DNA of 63,984 bases, filler included, from Stramenopiles sp. TOSAG23-2 (taxonomy: Eukaryota): the NCBI GenBank assembly GCA_900128395.1. It is 5 parts of 5 records of this genome, joined end to end, with 100 filler letters (N's around TTAATTAATTAA, not from the genome) between each part and the next. Parts side by side here need not be neighbours in the genome. Positions count along the whole stretch, not along the records: positions 1 to 12,924 come from LT649827.1; 4 more parts are not named here. One strand, written 5' to 3'. The translations under genes were made by a program, and so were the position numbers. The first letter of the stretch is position 1. The number at the start of each line of letters is the position of its first letter. Below, piece after piece: positions 1 to 32,450 of this stretch. Under the pieces are notes generated by a model. That model was not told the DNA's origin. It worked only from the letters and a program-made list of their open reading frames with translations, and ran no database searches.

Positions 1-1086
1 ATTAATATTAACGACTGGATAACTAAAAATGACTTTTTTATTTTTTTTAGTTATTATTCTATTATTCGTAATTGTAGTGATATATTTTCGAAAAATACAA
101 TGTGATCTTCGTAATACTTTTTTACCTATTATTATCATTACTTAGTAAAAACCGCAAAGAAAAAAAACAAACAAACAAACAAACAAACAAACAAATTGTA
201 CGTATATATGTATCTATGTATCTATTTTCTTTTTCTTTCTTTGTATAAATTGCCACATCAATCTAGATATCATATTCTATCATATATATTAATTCAATTA
301 ATATACAAAAAACTAAAACGTAGGAATGAGAGAAGCTTTTTTTTGTTCTTTTTCGGGGCCGCACTTCCAATACTCTTTTTTTTTAAAGGTTTTTATATTG
401 CACAAACATATTATATAAACATATATTATACAATGTTAAAAATATTTATATATATCGGATATATTGATATAAAAATAGAAAAAATTGAATATTAGTCTTT
501 TAACCTACAATGCTATGTCTATCCTGTGTGTATATGACCTAAAAAGAACATGAATAAAATCAAAAGGGAAAAATCGTTAAATACATCACATTTATAATAC
601 TGGCGATGGGGCATACGGTGTCACATGTTGTTCAAACATTCCTTGCTTGAGTAAATGTTTATCTTTTTTCTGTATTCCGTTGGTGCTTTTTTGGCGGAAA
701 AGTATTGCATGGCATGTCTCAGAACAGAAATAGTGATAAATTTTTTAAAAAGCATGACATTTATTTTAAACTATTCTAGATAAAAAAATTTTAATTTGCA
801 ACACCTTAATAGAATAATAATTAAGGATGGTTCAAAAACAGTTAAAATAATGCTAGCTACAGTACTGTAATGATGTGTCATCCAGTGTTATAATATATTC
901 AACAAACCATCATCACTATAATAGTAATACGTGCATACGTTCAAATATATAAATTATACATTTATAATAATCAAATAGAAAAAGAAGTTTTGATCTCATT
1001 CACTGTACTGTATTATTGTGTGAATCGGTGTACTTATCATCATATATATATTTTGTAAATACATATATATACATGTATATATATTT

Positions 1087-2653
1087 ATGATGGATCAATC
1101 CAACAACAACAACAACCAGAAAAATAGAAATACATGGCATATTTCCTCAGATGATTCAGAGGATGAATCAAATTCTAGCTCTATGAATCCTTTACCAAAC
1201 CCAACTATAAATATGTATAATCAACATAAAGCGGATGCGTTAGTACAGAAAAAAAATAAAGCAGATAGATATGATTTACCAAAACAATCTACGTGGTTCT
1301 TCTCTACAGTGTTAATATGCACGATTGCTGTTATGTGCGTTAGTACAGAAAAAAAATAAAGCAGATAGATATGATTTACCAAAACAATCTACGTGGTTCT
1401 TCTCTACAGTGTTAATATGCACGATTGCTGTTATGCTGGAGCGATTTATTATAGTGTTCGATGGGATGGGTGAGAAACACGAAGCATTTTTACATATTGA
1501 AATTTTTTCCTGTGTTTTATTATCATTTCTATGTTGTGGAATGATATATACATCCTTTGTTTATTTAACCAGGGTGAATGTATATATGCTGTATAATTAT
1601 TGCATTATGCATTTCATGCTACTGGCATACAATTCATTATACGTTGTAATACCGTCTGCGCGCTGTTCGCAAAATGATAATATTAACAACGTATGCCCAA
1701 TAACATTTTATATTTTACTCGTATTTACAGGTATTATAATTTATTTTGTATATCGTATACATGAGGATATGGCATGGTTATTTTTTAAACGTGTTGGTGC
1801 GTTGCCGAAAATGAGGAGATTATATAGTACGTATTTATTAGTACGAAGCTCTACTTCATTAAATGTTATATGTGCACTTTTGATTACGACATCTACTTGG
1901 AAATTTACAGTGTTGAATAAAGTTGATTTAGGAAATATCATTGCATTGATTATTGTAACATTAGCATTATTAGCAACTGAATATTTGGGACGATATTATA
2001 TGAAATTTGGAATTGAAAACGAAGATAAACAATTAGTACAAAGAAGTTTTTATTTAAGTTTATTTCTACCAATTTATACTATCTACTCCATAGTTGTTGG
2101 GGTATCTGCTTGGGAAAATCGATTTAATGCGGTGTTTACCGTCACAAGTGCTGAGAAAGCAGCAGAGGAAGGGGAAAAGACAAATGATTATGGTGTGCAT
2201 TATGCAAATGAAATTTTATTTGGTATTGCATTGAGTGTATTTTTAGGAATGATGGTATTTATTATGCGAATTAGAACATTTTTAAAAATGAAATACTTAC
2301 AAGCAAATTTCGGGCAAGGTTTACCAGAGAAAGTCTTGAATGATAACTTTTTCTTTACTGTTTATGACTTATTACCACTTTTGGAACGATTTCGTCCTAA
2401 TAAACATATTAGCAGTGGTAAATTAAAGGCAAGGCAAAGGGAGAATGATAAATTAGAAGCTGATGATGATGGTAGCTTTAAAATTAGAACCGTATCTGGG
2501 ACGAATTTAATTGATGTTAAGATTGATACTGATGCTAATAAATCACCTGCAATGAATGGTGCTGTGGAATTTTACCACCAGCACCTCTTGCACCATATCC
2601 TAATGATGAAGGGACAATTAAATTTGCACGTTGACCCAGACTCATTTGCATGA
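1087..2653 (+). CDS. Multi-pass membrane protein, UPF0658-like; split by a 100-bp duplication and with a chimeric 3' end
   Basis: ORFs 1087-1359 and 1325-2653 join in frame if one copy of the perfect repeat 1236-1335/1336-1435 is removed. About 7-8 hydrophobic segments. The motif DMAWLFFKRVGA...RRLYSTYL resembles the W..YK.I.AD...R.Y..YQ motif of the UPF0658 family. Sequence after about 2570 is antisense FKBP coding sequence. Confidence 0.6.
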
Positions 2654-4655
2654 CACCTTGATCCCATCCTTTAATAACTTGACCAACACCTATTGTAAAC
2701 ACGAATGGAGAATCACGATCTCTGGATGAATCAAATTTTTTACCATCTGCTTTTAATGTACCTGTGTAATGCATTGTTAACTTATCACCTTTTTTTGGAA
2801 ATGTTTTTCCATCCCCTTCTGTTATTGTCTCCAATTCAACACTTGGTGGATCACCTCTTTCTTCAATTGCTTTCATGATTTCATCTAATTTTTTACATGC
2901 CTCTTCTCTATCACCTTTCATAGCATTAGCTTTTGCCTCTTCAATTAAACGTTGAATTGGTAAATCTGGACGGTCAAGTGCAAAAATTGCACGTTGCAAA
3001 TGGCTCCATGCAGCCATGTTTGCAAACCAAGATTTGTCTGCAATACTACCGATACGCAATGCTTCAAGAAATTGCATCGTTGCTTCGATTAGTTTTTTTT
3101 GATCCCCTAGTGCTATACCATGATTTACACGGACACGAATGTACGTTTTATTCAATTCAATAGCAACAGTGTAACTTTTAATAGCTTCTTCAGGTCTGCC
3201 AGAATTAGCAAGTGTTGCACCTAATTTATTCCACAAGGTACTATCATTTGGTGAAAGTTGACATGCTTTGTTTAAAACTTCTGATGCAGCTTGACGATCA
3301 CCAGCAACATTGTAAAGGACACCTAAAATTTCTAAAGCTTTTGAATCGTTTGGAAATTTTTCAGTAACTTTCAAATACAACGAAATCAATTGTTTATTAT
3401 CAATTTTTTCCTTATCAACACTATCAAAACCTTCCATACCAGCCCCTTTTGTTAATACCCAATCAAGCAAATTTTTAACTGCCATTGCACTTTGGCCTTC
3501 GTTAAATGAAGCAACTGCTTTACCAGGCAATGCTTTAAATAATATACTAGTTTCCGTCAATGCTTTGTCACTATTTGATGTTATTGCTAAATACGATCGC
3601 ATTGCAAGGTTGTCATCGTCCATATCAGCATAGCATTGTCCAAGCATCAATAACGCTTCGTTTTTCTCTTCCAAAGCATCGTCGGCAGCATTTTTTGCAA
3701 CTCTTGCATACATTCTAGCAGCATCAATGGAATTGCCACCGTCATATATTACTTTCGCAATATTTAATGTAGGAGTACGTCCATCATTTTCATCGCCACA
3801 GTCAACGGTACTCAAATCAATTGGTTTTGGTGGATCTTTGCGTCTTGGTTGACCACCACCACCACCACCACCTCCCATCATTTGTTGCTGTTGTTTTTGT
3901 TGCATGACTTGTTGCAAAACTTTTATTTGAATCATTGGTTTCATATCATCCAATGTTGCAGCAGAGAAAAACGCATCCTTTTCTTCAGCTGGTAATTCTT
4001 GTAATTTTTTTTGCCATGCTTCAGCAGCTGGTTTCAACTCTTTCATCTTTTCCATTGCTTTGTCCATATCAAGTGCCATTAATTCTTGTTGCATTTGTTG
4101 CGCATATTCTTGAACTTCCTTCTCCATTTTTTCTCTTTTTTCAACTTCTTCTTTTCCATACAATGCAACCATAAAACTTAATTCTTGTTGCATTTGTTGC
4201 GCATATTCTTGAACTTCCTTCTCCATTTTTTCTCTTTTTTCAACTTCTTCTTTTCCATACAATGCAACCATAAAACGTCCCTTTTCAATTTCACAAAACA
4301 TTTTGTAACGCTGCAACAATGCCATATCTTTTTTTTCATTGACATAATGTTTCATTGCCTTATCTAAATAATCTTCATCAATTGTTGAAGATTTTTCACT
4401 CTCTGATAAAACACATTTGGCCCAACGTTGGTTATATTCATCTTTCAGGCGTTTTGATAAAATTTCAGCTTTTTCTTTCATTCCTAAACTTTTATCAATG
4501 TCTGCTCCCATGACTTCCAAATATTTGTCACTAACTAAAAATTCTTCTGCGGAACTTAAAAAATTCTCTAGTTGTTCTTTCGTACATGGTGGTGCTTCTG
4601 TTTTGGATGTTGTTTCTTCCGTATTACCTTTTTGCTCTGATGCTATAGATGCCAT
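2535..4655 (-). CDS. PEX5-like TPR protein with a C-terminal FKBP-type PPIase domain (last FKBP strand missing)
   Basis: LGVLYN...LSPNDSTLWNKLGATLANSGRPEEAIKSY..AIEL...YIRVRVNHGIA matches the PEX5 TPR5-7 signature. HYTGTL..GKKFDSSRDR..PF.FTIGVGQVIKGWD...LGYGARG is FKBP12-like. Contains an in-frame 99-bp duplication at 4079-4276. Confidence 0.85.
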   Translation of the reverse strand: MASIASEQKGNTEETTSKTEAPPCTKEQLENFLSSAEEFLVSDKYLEVMGADIDKSLGMKEKAEILSKRLKDEYNQRWAKCVLSESEKSSTIDEDYLDKAMKHYVNEKKDMALLQRYKMFCEIEKGRFMVALYGKEEVEKREKMEKEVQEYAQQMQQELSFMVALYGKEEVEKREKMEKEVQEYAQQMQQELMALDMDKAMEKMKELKPAAEAWQKKLQELPAEEKDAFFSAATLDDMKPMIQIKVLQQVMQQKQQQQMMGGGGGGGGQPRRKDPPKPIDLSTVDCGDENDGRTPTLNIAKVIYDGGNSIDAARMYARVAKNAADDALEEKNEALLMLGQCYADMDDDNLAMRSYLAITSNSDKALTETSILFKALPGKAVASFNEGQSAMAVKNLLDWVLTKGAGMEGFDSVDKEKIDNKQLISLYLKVTEKFPNDSKALEILGVLYNVAGDRQAASEVLNKACQLSPNDSTLWNKLGATLANSGRPEEAIKSYTVAIELNKTYIRVRVNHGIALGDQKKLIEATMQFLEALRIGSIADKSWFANMAAWSHLQRAIFALDRPDLPIQRLIEEAKANAMKGDREEACKKLDEIMKAIEERGDPPSVELETITEGDGKTFPKKGDKLTMHYTGTLKADGKKFDSSRDRDSPFVFTIGVGQVIKGWDQGVMQMSLGQRANLIVPSSLGYGARGAGGKIPQHHSLQVIY

Positions 4656-5171
4656 ATTTTGTATTATAAATATGATTCAAATTACGTGTGCGGTGTTGTA
4701 TAATTGTACTAATTCTTTTTATATATGTGTGTGTGTAGTAGTAGTAGTAGTAGATATATATAATTGTATCCTTGTTCCTTTGATTTATGAATTATTATTT
4801 GATATATATTACTCATAACTACTAATAAAGATATATATGTTATTATGGTTTTTTTTTTTCAGTCTAATGTGGTAGTGTTGGGTTCCCAACAATGCTATTT
4901 CCACCTTGTTCTTAGAAAAACATGAAAAAAACAAATTCGCAACTTTTTTTTGTGTGGATGGTGGATGGTGGTGGATTATTAAGCGGAATTATTAATTAGT
5001 GTACTGTAATAGTGGATAAATAGTATTTGTACGCCTCGTTTGTCAAAGTACTTACAGCCTGGACAGGGCTTAAGTTTTAGTTTCGATTTTGGTCTTTTTT
5101 TTTTGGATTTTGGCACTTCTTTGGATGAAAATAATTTTTTAATGATGCTGGGATGCCATATTATGTATTAA

Positions 5172-5415
5172 TAGTTGAATTATGTGTCCAACTAACTTGC
5201 AGTTTGCATAATTTATGCGGTAGATAGATATGGAAGTTGAATATAGGTTACACAAGTTGTTAAAATAGGTTCAAGATTTATATATATATATATAAGTTGA
5301 ATACTTTGAATAGCTATATTAGTTGAATACTTTGAATCGGTATAAGTTGAATAGCTTGAATAGATATAAGTTGAATACTTTAAATAGATATATATGATAT
5401 AAGTTGAATTGAATA
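5172..5415. repeat. Cluster of AGTTGAATW motifs upstream of the esterase
   Basis: Seven copies at about 5173, 5235, 5295, 5321, 5345, 5369 and 5402. Confidence 0.75.
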
Positions 5416-5519
5416 GATAATTATATTTATATAGTTAAATAGTAGTTTACAAAAAAGAAGAAGAAGAAAAAAAACGTGTATTATTATAAATATACATTAT
5501 ATACGATAATAATAATACA

Positions 5520-7271
5520 ATGTCATCAAAACCACAAATAAAAGTGCAACAAGGCATAATTGAAGGTGTGCATAATAATGAGAATCATGTAATTTCATTT
5601 AAAAATGTGCCATTTGCAAAACCACCAGTCGGAGAATTAAGATGGAGAGCACCGCAACCACCATTATCTTGGTCGGGTATTCGTGACTGTACAAAGCCTG
5701 GTAAAGCTTCATTGCAAGATGCTGCTTTTGATCCACCAGGTACAGTTGGAAGTGAATTTACAGCAAATATTTTCAGAATTGCAGGTGTTGACCCAAAAAA
5801 CTTTTCTCGTGTTTCACCTAGTGGATATAGTGAAGACTGTTTAATATTAGACATTTATGCCCCAGAAGAATCAATATTATTAAAAAATCAACCTTCATTA
5901 CCAATTATGGTTTGGTTTCATGGCGGGGCACATCGTAGCGGAAACTCAAGTGGGTATGATGGAAGTACGCTTTGCCAAACAGGGAACAAATGTATCGTTA
6001 TCTGTGCACAATATCGTTTAGGTTTATTAGGATTTTTTACGCATCCAGAGTTAAACAAAGAGCAAGGTGGATATTCTGGTAACTATGGGTTGATGGACCA
6101 TGTAGCTGCATTGGAATGGGTACGAGATAATGCACATACCTTTGGTGGTGATAAAAACAACGTCTCAATATTTGGTGAAAGTGCTGGGGGCAGTAGTTGT
6201 ACAGCTTTGATGGTTGCACCCTCTGCAAAAGGACTATTTCACCGTGCAATTTCTCAAAGTGGAACAGGAGTTCGAGTTGCTCAAGCAATTGATGAACCGA
6301 AAGGCTTACAAGGGTCAAAAGATAAAGGCATCATGCTTCAAAATGCGATGAAAGTGAATTCGTTGGCAGAATTGCGGAAAATACCTGGAGAAATATTGAT
6401 GAAAGAAGCATCAAAATACGGCACAAACCGAATGGTGCAATTAGCTGCACGCGGTGGTGTGACTGCAGATGGAAAATTTTTACCAGAATATGGCATCGAA
6501 GAGGCGTTTAAACGTGGGGAACATCATAACGTGCCATTTATTGTTGGTTTTAATGCTTTAGAAGGTGGTAGTTTCTTCCCTGTTATGCCTGTACCTGCAC
6601 CTGAGGCATTTGCATTGGAGACAGTACGGCACATGCCGGTGAATACAAAGGTCAAATATGATGCTGTTATGAAACACTTAACAAATAATAATCAACTTTT
6701 GGAAGAACGATTGACTGAATTGTTTTCGCGACATATAAAAAAAAGTGGAAGCACCGACAAAGATGTGATTACAATTCAAACCATTATGAATGGAGACACT
6801 TTATTTGGTGCACCATCGGAATTGTTAGCCGCGCATGGAGCAAATGCATATAAAAAAATGCCTGGAAAGGCACCAGTTTATATGTATGTATTTTCACGAA
6901 TTCCCGATGGGGAATTTGGTCCAAAAATTGGTGCATTCCATGCTGCTGAAATAGACTTCGTTTTCGGTGGTGGATTAGGTATGAGTAAAGGATTGCCTGC
7001 AAAAGGTGATGACAAGTTGAAAGAAGTAATGTCGAATCATTGGGTAGAATTTGCTCATAATGGCAAAGTTAAAGGATGGGAACCGTATGATGCAAGTTTA
7101 CAACGTTTTATGGAATATGGTCAAGCTGGTAAACATGGTATGACAGTAGATACATATATGAATGAACGTTTTGCATTATTGGAGGAAGCAAATTTAATTG
7201 GTGCGAAAGGGGAAAAATTAGCAAGGGTTAAAAACACAACCGAAAAAGTTGCTGTTGGTGCAAAATTATAA
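5520..7271 (+). CDS. Type-B carboxylesterase (COesterase family), predicted peroxisomal
   Basis: VPFAKPPVGELRWRAP, SEDCL, WFHGG, nucleophile motif GESAG, Glu in NALEG and His in AFHAAE. C-terminal -AKL is a PTS1. No signal peptide. Confidence 0.93.
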   Translation: MSSKPQIKVQQGIIEGVHNNENHVISFKNVPFAKPPVGELRWRAPQPPLSWSGIRDCTKPGKASLQDAAFDPPGTVGSEFTANIFRIAGVDPKNFSRVSPSGYSEDCLILDIYAPEESILLKNQPSLPIMVWFHGGAHRSGNSSGYDGSTLCQTGNKCIVICAQYRLGLLGFFTHPELNKEQGGYSGNYGLMDHVAALEWVRDNAHTFGGDKNNVSIFGESAGGSSCTALMVAPSAKGLFHRAISQSGTGVRVAQAIDEPKGLQGSKDKGIMLQNAMKVNSLAELRKIPGEILMKEASKYGTNRMVQLAARGGVTADGKFLPEYGIEEAFKRGEHHNVPFIVGFNALEGGSFFPVMPVPAPEAFALETVRHMPVNTKVKYDAVMKHLTNNNQLLEERLTELFSRHIKKSGSTDKDVITIQTIMNGDTLFGAPSELLAAHGANAYKKMPGKAPVYMYVFSRIPDGEFGPKIGAFHAAEIDFVFGGGLGMSKGLPAKGDDKLKEVMSNHWVEFAHNGKVKGWEPYDASLQRFMEYGQAGKHGMTVDTYMNERFALLEEANLIGAKGEKLARVKNTTEKVAVGAKL

Positions 7272-7750
7272 AAAATGTTCGTGGTGTACGAATTCGTAAT
7301 TTGGTTCATACGTGAGAACTCTTGTTGTAGTTGGTTACAAATTTTTGAAAGAATAAAATATAATACGAAGTATATAAGAGGTAATATTGTGTGTGTAAAA
7401 AATACATTTTATGCATATGCATAAAATAATTGATGTGGGTTAAAATCTAAGAGGTTATATTTCGTAAAAATAAAATTTTACTTCCCATGGTAAATAATAT
7501 GCTCAATACTCAATCACAAGAAACAAGAATAATATTCTATCCTACTATAATGAAAAGCTCTAATGCACGTTTGCAAACTAATACGTACTCCACAAGCACG
7601 AGTAGGTTTCTATCCTTCCATCTTCGTTCGTTGAACATAATACAAAAAAAATAAATTATATATCATACGAGATCTCGAAGTATACACATATATAAATACA
7701 TATATATATATCCTAAAAACAACAACATAGATAATCATTAATATTGGCAA

Positions 7751-9964
7751 CTATTGTTTAGACAAGGCTAAGAAAAATCGTCTTCGCTGCTGATGGCCTT
7801 GCCATAAGCGGTCAAAGTATGATGATGCGTTAATATTTGCTACTCCACAATCAATACCAGGCAGACCTTCATACAATAATATCTTATTCTTTCTAGATAT
7901 ATCATGTACTCTATAATCTTTATTTTTGTTAATTACCGTGGAGGATTTCAATACATGATTTAAATTATCAACAATTTTTAATAAAAACTTTGCATACCAT
8001 TCATTATCAGTCAATATGGTCATAATACCATCGTCCGTTAATGCGTTTGCCATCGATTTAAAAAATTCCCCGGATAATAAATGTGACGATTGTGAATCAT
8101 GATCTTCACCTTTCTGTTGTGGTGGTTCTGGATAATTGACAAAAATAAACTTTGCACAACTTGATTGAATATGCAATGGTAGTATTATACTAGCATCACC
8201 ACTAATTATGGATAAGTTATGACAATTATCAAACATCGAGCGGCAAAATATTTGATAAATACGATCGTGTCGTATTTCCATAGATACCCAATCAGAACCA
8301 GGATCATTTTTTGCTTGACTAACAACCCATTCACCAGCACCGGAACATATTTCAATTTTAACAGGGCGTTGCTGTTGTTGTTCTTGTTGTTGCTGTTGCT
8401 GCTGGTGGTTTTGCTTCTTATTACTGCCTTTTTCATCACTAATACTGCCATACATTAAAGTTTTTAAATTAATTTTTTCTGAATTATTATCCAAAATACT
8501 AGTGAAATGATTTAAAAATTGATTTTCATTTAATGAATATTTAGCTATTAGAGTTTTTAAACCAAAACCTTCATATAAACCATCGCAAAGTACATGGGGG
8601 AAGGAATTATCATTGTTACCATTATTATGATAATTATTATTATCGTCGTCGGATAATAATGTTCCATTTCTTACTAATGGAATTACACAGGTACGCTTTA
8701 AAAATGATATTAATATATCTATTTGTCTTTCATTGTTTATATTCTTCTCTTTTTGTAACTTTACATAATCCAACATCATTTCTATTTCTTCCCGCATTTC
8801 ATGTCGTCGATGTTGTTTAAATAATTTTAAAGATTCATTACGAGTATCGCTAGAAGCTTGGGAACCCCAACCACGCTTACCACCTTTAGTTTGACTTGCA
8901 TTTTTTTTATCATCAAGCCTTTTTTTGGTCGTTATCATTGTCGAAGAAGAAGATGATGACGACGACGTCTCTGTTGCTTGATTTTCTTCCATCTCTTCCT
9001 CTTCTTTCAGAAACAACAATGCTTTCTTTCCAGTTTTATTAGATGCTTTCCAACGACCTAGTATTGCATTACAACGACACATACATAAGTATAATGCTGG
9101 ATTGTTACATATAGATAAATCATTATTTGTTTTTGCTTTTAATCTTCCAACCATAGTATTAACAACTTCAATTTTTAATCCACGGCATAACAATGCAATT
9201 ACGTATTCCCATGAACTTGCATCAGGTATTATTTCCCATTTTTTTTCCATATTATGTAATATATCCAATGCTTTTGATACTTTGCCAATTAATATACAAC
9301 CACGTAGAAGAGTATTTCCAGTGCGTACGTTTGGGACTATCCTGTTTGCTAGCATTTTATCCGCAAGCTTTAAACCCTCGTTTAGCCTACCTTCATTGCA
9401 TAAACCTTTTATCACTGTTGTATATGATACAATATCTACTAGATTCATTGATGCTAAGAGTTTCTCCGCAGATGCAACGTCGCCACATCTTACATATGCA
9501 TTGATTGTTGCAGCATATGTGTGAGAGTTTGCTAAACCACGATTTTTTGCATTGTTAAATGCAAGTACTGCTTCATTCAATTGTTTTCTAGATGCAAAGA
9601 CAGCTATTGATTTATTAATTTTCACAGTTTCAGGGGATGTTTTTTTTAATTTTCTTTTCTTTGAATTTTTATTATTCTGATGATTTCCGTGAATCATAGA
9701 TTGATTTTTCTTATATTCATTATTGTGATTGTTATTTTTAGATTCTTTTTTATTTTTCTTGTTATTACTGTTTGGAAATTTAAATACCATTTGTTGAGGT
9801 AAATTGTCTATAATAGATTGATTTTTTTTATATTTATTATGGTGATTGTTATTTTTGGATTTTTTTTTATTTTTCTTGTTATTACTGTTTGGAAATTTAA
9901 ATACCATTTGTTGAGGTACACCGTCTAAAGACGACGTCCCTCGTTTCTTTCTTTTCTTTCCCAT
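7751..9964 (-). CDS. PPR protein with a C-terminal TrmB-like tRNA m7G methyltransferase domain (PPR-TGM type)
   Basis: PPR motifs TYAATINAYVRCGD, SYTTVIKGLCNEGRL and PNVRTGNTLLRGC. SAM-binding region IEICSGAGEW...SMEIRHDR...GDA...VNYPEP...LTDN is TrmB-like. Basic Lys/Asn-rich N-terminus with a 117-bp duplication. Confidence 0.85.
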   Translation of the reverse strand: MGKKRKKRGTSSLDGVPQQMVFKFPNSNNKKNKKKSKNNNHHNKYKKNQSIIDNLPQQMVFKFPNSNNKKNKKESKNNNHNNEYKKNQSMIHGNHQNNKNSKKRKLKKTSPETVKINKSIAVFASRKQLNEAVLAFNNAKNRGLANSHTYAATINAYVRCGDVASAEKLLASMNLVDIVSYTTVIKGLCNEGRLNEGLKLADKMLANRIVPNVRTGNTLLRGCILIGKVSKALDILHNMEKKWEIIPDASSWEYVIALLCRGLKIEVVNTMVGRLKAKTNNDLSICNNPALYLCMCRCNAILGRWKASNKTGKKALLFLKEEEEMEENQATETSSSSSSSSTMITTKKRLDDKKNASQTKGGKRGWGSQASSDTRNESLKLFKQHRRHEMREEIEMMLDYVKLQKEKNINNERQIDILISFLKRTCVIPLVRNGTLLSDDDNNNYHNNGNNDNSFPHVLCDGLYEGFGLKTLIAKYSLNENQFLNHFTSILDNNSEKINLKTLMYGSISDEKGSNKKQNHQQQQQQQEQQQQRPVKIEICSGAGEWVVSQAKNDPGSDWVSMEIRHDRIYQIFCRSMFDNCHNLSIISGDASIILPLHIQSSCAKFIFVNYPEPPQQKGEDHDSQSSHLLSGEFFKSMANALTDDGIMTILTDNEWYAKFLLKIVDNLNHVLKSSTVINKNKDYRVHDISRKNKILLYEGLPGIDCGVANINASSYFDRLWQGHQQRRRFFLALSKQ

Positions 9965-10919
9965 CTACGTATTTCTTGTTTTCAACATGTATTCATTTAA
10001 TCACACGGTGGATATTGCTTTTCTCTTTCACGTCCTTTGCAATTAATACTATAAATATTATTAGAAGAAGAAGAAGAAGAAGAAGAAAAGCAACAAACAA
10101 CAACAATAATTTAAATCGTGTTCGCGTAGGCGCGTAGGGGTGATTTTGGGGGAGTATACGAAGGTCAGTACTTACACCGAATTCCCATATGGTCTTTTGC
10201 TATATGATTTAGTAGTCTTAGAAATCGTACCACTCCGTTCCTGAAGTCGGTTACAATGGGGCAAGAGAGAAGGGTCGGAAAAATATCAAAAAAAAATTTT
10301 TCCTGTTGTGCCATCATACTATATGTCCGCAAGGGATAGCATGTCACTCAGTTATGTGGTGAATGAACAACTTTTTCCACCAAAATAGCGTTTTTTTTGT
10401 AAATCGGGATGATAGAGAAAATGTGTTTTACATACTTAATTCGTCGAAAATTAATATATTTTTGCTTTGTTAATAATCTTAGGACATGTTGTATACATTT
10501 GTTGTACCTAAAATGGTATTATCTTTAGCTAAATGTCAGTACGTATAGGTTTTGTATTAAGGAAATACAAAAAATTATAGAAGAAAGTGGATAGAAATTA
10601 GAAAAAATACCAAGATATTGAAATAACCGCAACAATTGGCAAAAAATTACAAGAAACCGAGGATTTTGTAAATAAAGTATTAACAAAAATTTAATAGCAC
10701 AATAGTGTATTTTTAATATTTAAGGATACCAGACGATTTAGAAACACAGCTGGACAGGTGATAGAAATAAGAACAAATTGAAGTATAAAAATATCTAATT
10801 GGTGCAATTGAAATAATGTTTTGTGTTTACACACTTATAGATGTATGTACATATTATATAAAACAATTACAAATAGCATTATATAACATACATAAACAAC
10901 TACTATATTAAAAAAAAAA

Positions 10920-11591
10920 ATGGCATCTACAAGCAAACAACATCATCATTTAAAGTATTTAAAAACAAACTTAAATACATTACCACTTGAAAAAAGAATA
11001 CAATTAATTGAAGATAAACAACAAATATCAGATACATTATATCGATATGCAGCAGGATTAGACTCACAAGATTGGGTATTATGGAGAAAATGTTTCACGG
11101 ATAAAGTAGTTTTTGATATGCGTTCTATCATGCCATGGTGGAGAAATACAGAGCGTGATAAACGGCGTGCAACGTCTGCGGATAAAAATGTTGCTGGTAT
11201 TAAAATACAATTTGCTGGTTTATCAAATACACAACATTTATTAGGAAATCATCGATATATTGAGTTGGATGTGAATTTTGAGGATGGTACAGGTACAGCA
11301 CGTGTTATATCAACAATGCGAGCGGAACATTGGTGTCCAGAAGCTGGGGAAGGGAAAGATCGATACACAATGCTTGGTTATTACGACGATCGCTTAATAC
11401 GTGTACCAGAAACTGGTGAATGGAAATTATGTGAAGTACAATTAAATGTTACACGTGTTGAAGGTAATCCAGAAGTAATGAAACTTGCAACTAAAATTGG
11501 TAAATTAAAATCAAAAACATTACCAAATACTGGTGGTAAAAATGCATGGAATATACGAAATGGAAAATCAACAATTGAATCAAGGTTGTAA
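10920..11591 (+). CDS. SnoaL-like/NTF2-fold protein (LinA/BaiE/scytalone dehydratase-like), predicted peroxisomal
   Basis: EDKQQISDTLYRYAAGLDSQDW...CFT, TQHLLGNH and GYYDDRL...WKL are typical of the SnoaL_4 family. C-terminal -SRL is a PTS1. Confidence 0.85.
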   Translation: MASTSKQHHHLKYLKTNLNTLPLEKRIQLIEDKQQISDTLYRYAAGLDSQDWVLWRKCFTDKVVFDMRSIMPWWRNTERDKRRATSADKNVAGIKIQFAGLSNTQHLLGNHRYIELDVNFEDGTGTARVISTMRAEHWCPEAGEGKDRYTMLGYYDDRLIRVPETGEWKLCEVQLNVTRVEGNPEVMKLATKIGKLKSKTLPNTGGKNAWNIRNGKSTIESRL

Positions 11592-12001
11592 AAAAAACAA
11601 ATTTTGATTTGTTGTGTGTATATATATAATATATATTAATATTGACGTCCATTTGATAAATTACTTGTAACATGTTTAATCTCGTATATGTACGTATTCG
11701 TTTAGTACGACAAAGTATTTTCTTTTTCACACCGCCTCTCTTTTAATTCTCCTTTTCACACAAATCTCACGCTCTCTCTTCACTTTCCTCCCATAATGGT
11801 TATATAAACGTCTTTCTTTATTATGTACTATACGTAATTTCAAGAAATTGTTTACATTGTGTGTGTGTGATGTGTGTATAAATGCACCAAATGCATCTTA
11901 TATATATATGATAAATACTCTTGTCGCATTTCTACGATATTATCACCAACAACAACGCACAAGATACGTACATCTTTTTGTGTGTTTCACAACAACAATT
12001 T

Positions 12002-12924
12002 CTACTGTTCCTCCCATGATGGTAAACGTTTTTCATACATTGATTTTGTTCCTTCACTTGCATCTTTTGTACAAAATATTTGAATCATATTCTCTTCTGC
12101 AAGTTCATATTGTTTATTAAGATCCAAACCAATATATTTCGATGATTCAATGAAACCACGTTTACCTAATTCAATATTATATGATGTATGAATCAATTGA
12201 TTTGTTATTTGTTCTAATGTATCATCAATTGATAATAATTCATCTCCATCATCAACACTTGAGGATGATCCTTTATTCTCACTATTATTATTATTACCTT
12301 CTTCTTTACATAAATAATTAATCAAACCAACACGATATGCTTCATATGCATTGATTTTCTTACCAGTTATTAAATATTCTAATGTTTTATTGTAACCAAT
12401 ACGATTGGAGATGGAAACACTTGGCGTGCTACAAAAACGACCACGTTGACTACCTGGTATACTAAACTCCGAATTAGTAGTTGCTAAGATAATATCCGTC
12501 GATGCAATTAATTGCAATCCACCACTATAACATTTTTGATTATCTACAATTGTTATTGTTGGTTGTTTTAAATGATGTATTTTCAAATTTAATAATGTAC
12601 ATGTATGAAATATATTTTTTAAATATTGTTTATTATCTTTATCATTGTCATAATATAATGAATAATTCTGTTTCTTATCAAATAAATCATTGACATCATG
12701 CCCTGAAGAGAACCAATTAGTATTGGTGTCATTATTATTATTGCATTTTTCTGCTTTGAATATTAATGCACGTACATTCTCATTATTTTCTATTTTAGTT
12801 TCAATAGTTGAAATTAAATTATTCATTAAATGTAACGATAATGGATTTGTACGTTGGCTATTTGTTAATGTTAATGTAGCAATGTTAGTAGTTTTACATA
12901 TATTCAATTTAAATAAATTCATAT
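12002..12924 (-). CDS. Enoyl-CoA hydratase/crotonase family protein (ECHDC3-like), probably 5'-truncated at the contig end
   Basis: NPLS..LM, FSSGHD, GGLQLIASTDI, FSIPG..RGRFCSTP, A.EAYRVGLIN and EG...EKR.P.W. Confidence 0.88.
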
Positions 12925-31001: not shown

Positions 31002-32450
31002 TTATAAATGTGATCGGAACGATTCAGTAGCAAAGATTGAATTCAAACCAGGACCTCTTGTTACCCATTTTTCATCCACACCAGCTTGTTGTAAATGTGG
31101 ACGGTATTTTTCCAACGCTTTATGATGCAATGCAATCACATTGTATGGAGTGAAATTAATTTCATCTTGCGTTTTTGCTGCACGATTTACATATTTAGCA
31201 AGTACTTGACGTGCAATCGTAACTTTATGTACCTCTGTTGGTCCATCAGCAATACCTTGTACATGGCCAGACATCAAATAACGAGTAAATGGCAATTCCC
31301 AGCTAACACCTAAGCCACCATGCAACCTCATGGCATGCGTAACAACAATATCGATAACTTTTGGTACCATTGCTTTGACGGCAGCAATATCTTTTCGTAC
31401 TGCACGATAATTTTTTGGATTTTGATCAATCAACCATGCAGTACGTAAAACAAGCAATTTAAATTGTTCCAATGCCATCCAACAATCAGCAACTTTTTCT
31501 TGTGTCATTTGTTTCAATGCCAATTTTTCCCCTTGCGTTGTGCGGCTTTGTGCACGTTCACACATCATATCAAACGCTCTTTTGCAGGTACCAATAGTAC
31601 GCATACCATAATGAATACGCCCACCAGATAAACGAGTTTGTGCAACAAGGAAACCTTCCCCACGTCTACCTAATAAATGATCAAATGGTACACGAACATT
31701 TTTATATTCAACATAACCATGATCACCACCTGGTAAGCCTCTTTCAGGATCATGTAAATCCAATTCATGGATACCAGTACCAACATTACGCAAAATTGTT
31801 ACACCAGGTGTAGTTGCTGGAATAATAAACATGGACATGGATGAATGCCTACTTGCTTCTGGATCTGTCACTGCCATCATTAAAAAGAATGCTGCATATT
31901 TTGCACTTGAAGACCATAATTTTGCTCCATTAATAACCCATTCATTTGTATCTGGATCAAGTTCAGCACGTGATACGAATGTAGTTGGATCAGCGCCACC
32001 TGCTGGTTCGGTCATGGAATAGCATGAAGATATTTTATCTTGTAATAATGGTTCAAGGAATTCTTTCTTTTGTTTTGGTGTTCCATAATGTGCAAGAATT
32101 TCACTATTGCCAGTATCAGGTGCAGCAGTTCCAAATACTTTTGGTGCACAACGAGAACGTCCAAGTATAAGGTTCATGCAAGCTAATTTAAATTGACCAT
32201 AGCCGGGACCACCAAGTTCAGGCCCTAAATGACATGCCCATAAACCTTGATCTCGCACTTTTTGTTGCAATGGCGGGAATAAAGCTGCACGTGCAGGATG
32301 GGTCGTATCGTATGGCGAAAATCCAAATGTATCAAGTGGCTCTACTTCCTCTTTGACAAACTTGTCCATCCACTTTAATTTTTCAATAAATTCTGGCTGA
32401 ATGCCGAATAATTTCAAATCTCTGCCGATAAATTCATCAAAATCTTCCAT
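31002..32450 (-). CDS. Acyl-CoA dehydrogenase (ACAD10/11 / FadE2-like), predicted peroxisomal
   Basis: APDTGNSEIL..YGT, SMTEP.GGAD, INGAKLWSS, AQTRL.GGRIH, HGGLGVS and IADGPTEVH. C-terminal -SHL is a PTS1 variant. Confidence 0.93.
   Translation of the reverse strand: MEDFDEFIGRDLKLFGIQPEFIEKLKWMDKFVKEEVEPLDTFGFSPYDTTHPARAALFPPLQQKVRDQGLWACHLGPELGGPGYGQFKLACMNLILGRSRCAPKVFGTAAPDTGNSEILAHYGTPKQKKEFLEPLLQDKISSCYSMTEPAGGADPTTFVSRAELDPDTNEWVINGAKLWSSSAKYAAFFLMMAVTDPEASRHSSMSMFIIPATTPGVTILRNVGTGIHELDLHDPERGLPGGDHGYVEYKNVRVPFDHLLGRRGEGFLVAQTRLSGGRIHYGMRTIGTCKRAFDMMCERAQSRTTQGEKLALKQMTQEKVADCWMALEQFKLLVLRTAWLIDQNPKNYRAVRKDIAAVKAMVPKVIDIVVTHAMRLHGGLGVSWELPFTRYLMSGHVQGIADGPTEVHKVTIARQVLAKYVNRAAKTQDEINFTPYNVIALHHKALEKYRPHLQQAGVDEKWVTRGPGLNSIFATESFRSHL

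Follow-up and report, generated by a model that had tools for sequence, protein, structure and literature searches.

Positions 1-12924 of the window (the whole stretch analyzed here, 63,984 nt in five joined parts from Stramenopiles sp. TOSAG23-2, GenBank assembly GCA_900128395.1) are one entire contig, LT649827.1 (G000:C1621), of a 32.8-Mb, 9,146-contig assembly. This contig carries a gene in which a PEX5-type tetratricopeptide repeat (TPR) domain, the kind that recognizes the type 1 peroxisomal targeting signal (PTS1) at the C-terminus, is joined to a C-terminal FKBP12-like domain. The reading favored here, although it could as easily prove wrong as right, is that the fusion is a general cytosolic PTS1-binding folding co-chaperone with no role as a docking receptor, and that the enzyme genes with PTS1-like ends beside it are incidental neighbors. 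The fusion consists of a helical N-terminal domain, then the PEX5-type TPR, then the FKBP12-like domain:

2564..4655, minus strand: PEX5-like TPR-FKBP fusion gene; ATG at 4655, true product about 677-679 aa
3870..4600 (approximate bounds), minus strand: predicted all-helical N-terminal domain; invariant Cys24, YxxxW at 74-78, no WxxxF/Y
2961..3827, minus strand: PEX5-type TPR domain
2564..2846, minus strand: probable FKBP12-like peptidyl-prolyl isomerase domain, C-terminal; its final residues fall within 1,090 missing nt
2564, no strand: assembly collapse, with about 1,090 nt lost (FKBP end, OST3/OST6-like gene, membrane-protein gene end)

The contig is AT-rich, its genes are mostly single open reading frames (ORFs), and the sequencing runs containing its sequence are mostly marine. 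Contigs of runs X1 and X2, from two studies, have at 2564 the 1,090 additional letters missing from the assembly; in a same-species contig (L009) these comprise the FKBP domain's true end, an OST3/OST6-like gene of 148 aa (its Pfam E of 4.7e-5 falls below the curated threshold), and the last part of a membrane-protein gene. The locus therefore has seven genes, and the codons at 2535-2563, the fusion's last in the assembly, are an artifact. Two exact duplications in the assembly, of 100 nt (1236-1335/1336-1435) and 99 nt (4079-4177/4178-4276), are likewise assembly errors, both skipped by the X1 and X2 contigs; the 99-nt one, which sits in the N-terminal domain and yields an artifactual 33-aa repeat in the fusion, is also absent from homologs.

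The fusion architecture recurs in five 90%-clusters of full-length proteins, roughly at species level and 59-95% identical, with a partial sixth besides, and on independent metagenome contigs (L006-L010); these full-length homologs and independent contigs rule out an assembly chimera. All complete homologs end -ELLKIN, as does the completed fusion, and neither it nor they have a PTS1. In a profile search of 1.84 billion representatives, the best 150 matches were inspected; the family gained only P0003 and three fragments from them, and all the others were multi-stretch matches.

The gene had been called PEX5-like in a preliminary description of this contig, and the sequence and fold matches of its TPR domain bear this out, as do the retained pocket residues. 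The domain's best natural PDB sequence match is PEX5 (3cv0, E 1.9e-23), and PEX5 TPRs head the Foldseek results (3cvn, E 1.4e-11). Read by aligning the fusion TPR to human PEX5 through the genome's canonical copies, with what we take to be the isoform offset in the human residue numbering, the pocket retains equivalents of N415, N526, N534, R520/557, and N561, along with the acidic TPR2 patch. Passages of PMC9328179 and PMC4900764 describe the roles of the named residues as PTS1 contacts. The modeling of this domain with a GAKL peptide, suggested with the preliminary description, places the tail in the pocket: a predicted complex of the TPR with residues 544-583 of the neighboring carboxylesterase, which ends -GAKL, scores 0.78 against 0.35 for the best of three controls, where the mark applied to such scores is attained by 51 of 78 solved pairs and 2 of 108 mismatched pairs. 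The runs share at least 57% of their contacts, with a predicted local distance difference test score (pLDDT) of at least 48 for the partner, and the model places only G-A-K-L, in the known pocket, in contact with N109, N200, K201, N208, R231, N235, D70, and D72. Because PEX5-PTS1 structures have already been solved, the docking score measures likeness to these, and neither binding nor a preference for the esterase. On the sequence and fold matches, the pocket residues, and the model together, the fusion TPR is of PEX5 type and is probably still able to bind PTS1.

In front of the TPR, the disordered docking N-terminus of PEX5 appears to have been replaced by a folded helical domain. Residues 20-228 are predicted to form it, with a mean pLDDT of 79 (about 80-93 over 21-220). 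Searches for its family gave no Pfam match, no Atlas match, and no Foldseek match with E <0.001; the best Z among 48,161 chains is 7.8, and there is one weak BART row (E 6.6). WxxxF/Y is absent from all six members of the fusion family. The genome encodes Pex14 and has three PEX5-family genes in all, the fusion and two canonical paralogs, L002 (G000:C673) and L003 (G000:C725), whose Met/Gln/Gly-rich N-termini carry three and two WxxxF motifs, respectively; one of the two has an intron.

At the other end of the protein, the FKBP_C domain (PF00254, E 1.4e-29) has FKBP1A as its best single-domain PDB match, and its complete end is present in P0001, L006, and L009. It scores up to 117 bits against FKBP12 and 88 against the first domain of wheat FKBP73; it is probably an FKBP12-like peptidyl-prolyl isomerase domain and would be expected to have isomerase activity. 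Three metagenome proteins (P0007, P0238, and P0286) also combine FKBP with a PEX5-like TPR, here with the PEX5-like repeats last, after several FKBP domains and a block of TPRs. Their N-termini are FKBP52/62-like, with no counterpart of the fusion's N-terminal domain, and WxxxF/Y is absent from all three; an Atlas search with P0286 found generic TPR/immunophilin clusters only. In a tree of TPR sequences (IQ-TREE, LG+G4, 299 columns, 24 rows, after a motif-based cut had excluded 11 rows to leave 30 and six near-duplicates were then removed), the fusion forms one branch with these three proteins (support 100/99), while the two canonical PEX5s group with those of Pythium and Nannochloropsis (100/99), which points to a probable stramenopile source. 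A topology that places the fusion family with the two PEX5s of this genome and their sister P0243 is rejected (approximately unbiased test, p-AU 5.6e-6), and motifs ahead of TPR1 that are common to the fusion family and the relatives with N-terminal FKBP are visible in the alignment. The fusion's C-terminal FKBP, at 45-47% identity to the relatives' first FKBP, is nearer to FKBP12 than to theirs, so FKBP was probably attached to this TPR branch twice. The repeated pairing is the strongest argument for a functional link between the two domains.

A co-chaperone of this kind would work in the cytosol, where its TPR ring would grip newly made peroxisomal enzymes by their C-terminal PTS1, hold the bound enzyme beside the prolyl isomerase for folding or assembly, and then release it to canonical PEX5 for import. 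The architecture and its conservation, the pocket residues, the position in the tree, and the synteny pattern described below form the basis of this reading, together with the modeled PTS1 binding. Peroxisomes import folded proteins, and how the folding of cargo is coupled to the loading of the cytosolic receptor is poorly defined; a natural chain that combines a PTS1 pocket with a prolyl isomerase, and that seems to have been put together twice, points to a folding/receptor-loading step. A broader conjecture, offered tentatively and with more doubt than belief, is that such "PTS1-directed immunophilins" are a class as yet undescribed, a PEX5-derived branch of marine eukaryotes joined to FKBP at least twice, that they provide a pre-import folding checkpoint for cargo, and that the fusion shares a divergent promoter with a client of its own.

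The remaining features of the contig bear on whether its neighbors matter:

4656..5519 (864 nt), no strand: head-to-head spacer between fusion and esterase
5520-7271, plus strand: type-B carboxylesterase (COesterase, GESAG motif); C-terminal -GAKL, apparent PTS1 -AKL
7751-9964, minus strand: pentatricopeptide repeat (PPR) + Methyltransf_4 (TrmB-like) gene; lacks a PTS1 and is syntenic in L008
10920-11591, plus strand: SnoaL_4/NTF2-like protein; C-terminal -ESRL, apparent PTS1 -SRL; 3,648 nt past the esterase
12002-12922, minus strand: enoyl-CoA hydratase (ECH_1); ends -WEEQ, no PTS1; convergent with the SnoaL gene

ORFs and domain matches confirm the genes, strands, and distances first reported, with the -AKL and -SRL ends and the hydratase lacking a PTS1; the PPR gene noted as lying in between is indeed there, and carries Methyltransf_4 as well. 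The hydratase starts 2 nt from the end of the contig, which probably cuts off its N-terminus, and no PTS2 is visible in the residues present. Both PTS1s look real, since orthologs with different upstream sequence end -SRI: the esterase ortholog in L008 does so through a short last exon, and three homologs of the SnoaL protein end -SRL (P0235), -SRI (P0237), and -VKK (P0236). We take -SRI to be a PTS1 variant, although a literature check did not confirm it. The esterase and SnoaL proteins are probably truly peroxisomal, and are possible clients of the fusion among an estimated 300.

The esterase matches mammalian carboxylesterases (CES) and p-nitrobenzyl esterase about equally, and the genome has at least six further loci of its family. 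In a genome search the SnoaL protein is single-copy, and the only structure it matched is the uncharacterized 4gb5; the closest solved relative of the hydratase is human ECHDC3, which is presumably mitochondrial. No shared pathway is evident from these family matches, and we know of none. The module of ester hydrolysis and dehydration previously envisaged is unsupported: the hydratase is ECHDC3-like and has no signal, no pathway linking the three is evident, and unrelated genes are equally syntenic.

Synteny was followed in a metagenome scan, in which 234 pattern matches reduced to five loci. L006 and L009 are from the same species (99%), L007 and L008 from one relative (66%), and L010 from another (55%), so that two relatives could be compared. 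The genes of L007/L008 run PPR-methyltransferase, esterase and fusion (head-to-head), OST3/6-like, MsrB, and a flipped membrane protein, which rules out a misjoin as the source of the fusion/esterase adjacency; these contigs end before the SnoaL gene. The unrelated PPR-methyltransferase, OST3/6-like, and membrane-protein genes are kept equally well there. In L010 the fusion is intact, with ArgJ on the same strand in the esterase's upstream place. There is no conserved bidirectional-promoter element in the spacer, whose comparison with the relative scores 30 where the 95th percentile of shuffled sequences is 32. The esterase and SnoaL genes probably lie beside the fusion through ordinary conservation of gene order, and their linkage to it would then be incidental. 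Where the preliminary description saw a dedicated receptor or chaperone located with its cargo, a chaperone does fit better than a receptor. The cluster interpretation is at best partly borne out: the esterase keeps its place in one relative and yields it to ArgJ in the other, and the spacer is not conserved.

The spacer is itself probably polymorphic. Among the listed run pieces none spans 4146-5482, where depth is low, and the same-species contig L006 departs from the assembly beyond 5025. Four degenerate tandem units of 24-26 nt occupy 5286-5393, and the L006 sequence past 5025 is unrelated, which suggests a polymorphic insertion.

The background frequency of PTS1 was estimated on 64 stretches totaling 650,660 nt: 60 pieces of 10 kb taken from contigs >25 kb, and the other four contigs of the window, with 32 short loci excluded. 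Gene ends came from a simple codon model with an intron filter, which misses short last exons and makes the frequency rough. Strict PTS1 ends ([SAC][KRH]L) are 6 of 278, or 2.2% (95% confidence interval 0.8-4.6%), about twelve times the 0.19% expected from composition; a broader set gives 10 of 278. One ORF on another contig of the window, at 31002-32450 (minus strand), has a strict PTS1 end, -SHL. The chance of a PTS1 on one of two flanking genes is about 4%, and that of a second given the first 10%. No sampled stretch among the 64 has two PTS1 ends, against 0.2 (strict) or 0.6 (broad) expected, and a permutation on 313 unfiltered ends (no intron filter) gives one stretch observed and 0.84 expected; there is no sign of general clustering of PTS1 genes in this genome. 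The 10 kb around each of the two canonical PEX5 genes contains no PTS1 end.

Several observations weigh against a general co-chaperone with incidental neighbors. The fusion family's branch in the TPR tree is very long, at 1.48 changes per column, and long-branch attraction is possible. The position of N568 is Asp in all aligned members of the family; this change in the pocket, together with the long branch, may mean an altered PTS1 specificity. Both an invariant Cys at about residue 24 and a reversed YxxxW motif occur in all six members, and could still permit docking and recycling. According to passages of PMC6203080, the PEX5s of diatoms and haptophytes also lack WxxxF/Y and are nonetheless treated as receptors, Pex14 being absent there too, so the missing motif in the fusion is not decisive. 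As for the locus, the probability of at least two PTS1s among six neighbors is 0.66% (0.09-2.8%), and the broad set raises it to 1.8%. The esterase in the 66% relative keeps both its head-to-head position and a PTS1-like end, and an MsrB gene ending -NKL lies two genes downstream in that relative's locus. Finally, the loss of esterase linkage in L010 is read from one 3.7-kb contig.

A specialized second import receptor, comparable to Pex9 or Pex5a, is an unlikely alternative. Such a receptor would carry a subset of PTS1 cargo with no special tie to its neighbors, dock via YxxxW or canonical PEX5, and recycle via Cys24 as a putative ubiquitin acceptor, with FKBP aiding cargo folding or release; the retained pocket and the invariant Cys and YxxxW are all in its favor, passages of PMC8172628 and PMC9133605 supply precedents for cargo-selective paralogs, and PEX5s without WxxxF exist (PMC6203080, in part). 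The fusion's N-terminus, however, is predicted to be folded where that of PEX5 is disordered; its YxxxW lies within a long helix; the Cys lacks its canonical context (EPPCTKEE, compared with GQGCSVDG in the canonical copies); and the relatives with N-terminal FKBP have no matching N-terminus. It would also be unusual for a receptor that cycles to have a bulky C-terminal domain; PMC4900764 mentions a bulky tag at the C-terminus.

A selected, co-regulated unit, in which the fusion would be the dedicated receptor or foldase of the esterase and perhaps of the SnoaL protein and would share a bidirectional promoter with the former, is quite improbable. It draws on the low probability at this single locus, the head-to-head order and PTS1-like esterase end both retained at 66% identity, the docking of the esterase tail in the model, and the additional -NKL gene of the relative. 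That probability is less striking in a wider frame, rising to 2.0% when three PEX5-like genes are considered and to about 10% if the number of peroxin genes is taken as 15, and the pair was selected after being seen, in a scan of very many windows. At a 2.2% background the pair is uncommon, the genome gives no sign of general clustering, and the co-location appears to exceed chance only mildly. The linkage is lost in L010 while the fusion persists; the PPR, OST3/6-like, and membrane-protein genes are as syntenic as the esterase; the spacer is unconserved; and the chances for flanking genes given above, the ECHDC3-like hydratase without a signal, the other carboxylesterase loci, and the lack of any pathway that we know of all tell against the unit. 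If true, this minority reading on current evidence would describe an unusual pair of targeting factor and cargo in a protist.

Co-option of the kind seen in TRIP8b, where the pocket would bind the SKL-like tail of a non-peroxisomal client (a channel, receptor, or signaling protein) regulated by the FKBP domain and would have no role in peroxisomes, is improbable to much the same degree: FKBP12 is a modulator of channels or receptors, and the long branch, the change of N568 to Asp, and the lack of docking motifs all fit, but an intact pocket would be contested by the organism's many PTS1 proteins (about 2% of gene ends), and the pocket in the model takes up a true PTS1 tail. Vertebrate PEX5R/TRIP8b, whose structure 4eqf is among the matches, uses this same fold to bind the tails of HCN channels (passages of PMC8172628).

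Some further observations concern the neighboring genes. At 7751-9964 (minus strand), the PPR repeats are joined to the TrmB-like Methyltransf_4 domain behind a Lys/Asn-rich N-terminus, a fusion also present in L008 (71% over 637 aa); the product is possibly an m7G methyltransferase guided to RNA by its PPRs. The MsrB (SelR) gene at L008:8645-9289 (minus strand), absent at this place in the window's species, has a presequence-like N-terminus as well as its -NKL end, and dual mitochondrial/peroxisomal targeting is possible. The 472-aa multi-pass membrane-like protein at 1081-2564 (plus strand; L009:2472-3890) has no Pfam match; two errors of the assembly, the collapse at 2564 and the false duplication of 100 nt, break its ORF, and in the relative it is inverted and about 80% identical, exceeding the conservation of the fusion. 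At about 7517-7620, between the convergent esterase and PPR genes, is a short high-copy repeat where contigs break, with a summed depth of 1,500-4,400 in three DNA runs and a presence in the RNA run too; it is possibly a small mobile element or RNA. In RNA run X15, contigs cover portions of four genes (fusion, esterase, PPR, and membrane protein), and SnoaL has no depth; this run cannot rank the genes and was not used.

What is new here is the fusion protein, a variant of the PEX5 family, and not its neighborhood. No report of a PEX5-FKBP fusion was found in the open full-text literature, to which the search was confined without subscription papers or supplements; "FKBP" does not occur in PMC6203080, and no receptor-cargo gene cluster was found by title or the start of the abstract in the literature listing. 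Extra PEX5 paralogs are already known from passages of PMC8172628 (Pex9, TRIP8b) and PMC9133605 (Ustilago Pex5a/b). Like a metabolic cluster of the fungal type, the locus has adjacent enzyme genes, a shared compartment, and one divergent pair; unlike one, it has no evident common pathway and has unrelated genes interspersed, its linkage is not kept in the more distant relative, and its spacer is not conserved.

With PEX5 itself (human 1fch/2c0l, Trypanosoma brucei 3cv0/3cvn) the fusion shares the TPR fold, the WNKLGATLAN motif, four pocket Asn and the Arg, and the predicted pose of PTS1. It differs in being about 25-30% identical, in its folded N-terminal domain without WxxxF/Y, in the Asp at N568, in its C-terminal FKBP, and in its separate branch. 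The cargo-selective paralogs S. cerevisiae Pex9 and Ustilago maydis Pex5a are also extra PEX5-family proteins alongside a general receptor; Pex9 has likewise lost the usual disordered N-terminus (PMC8172628, in part). These two are demonstrated importers, for which the available passages mention no isomerase domain; the fusion is not a recent in-paralog. PEX5R/TRIP8b (4eqf) is, as far as the passages available go, a PEX5-type TPR able to bind PTS1-like tails without a proven role in import, but it is a vertebrate HCN-channel subunit that arose by an independent duplication. To our knowledge it has no FKBP domain.

FKBP51/52 and plant FKBP62/73 resemble the fusion in having FKBP and TPR in a single chain and in their co-chaperone logic, and adding a PEX5-like TPR to such TPR immunophilins gives the architecture of P0007, P0238, and P0286. 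The TPR of FKBP51/52-type proteins is a three-repeat Hsp90-binding clamp; that of the fusion is PEX5-type, and the fusion's one FKBP12-like domain sits at the C-terminus. The fusion would add a third fate for PEX5 paralogs, next to Pex9-type receptors and TRIP8b.

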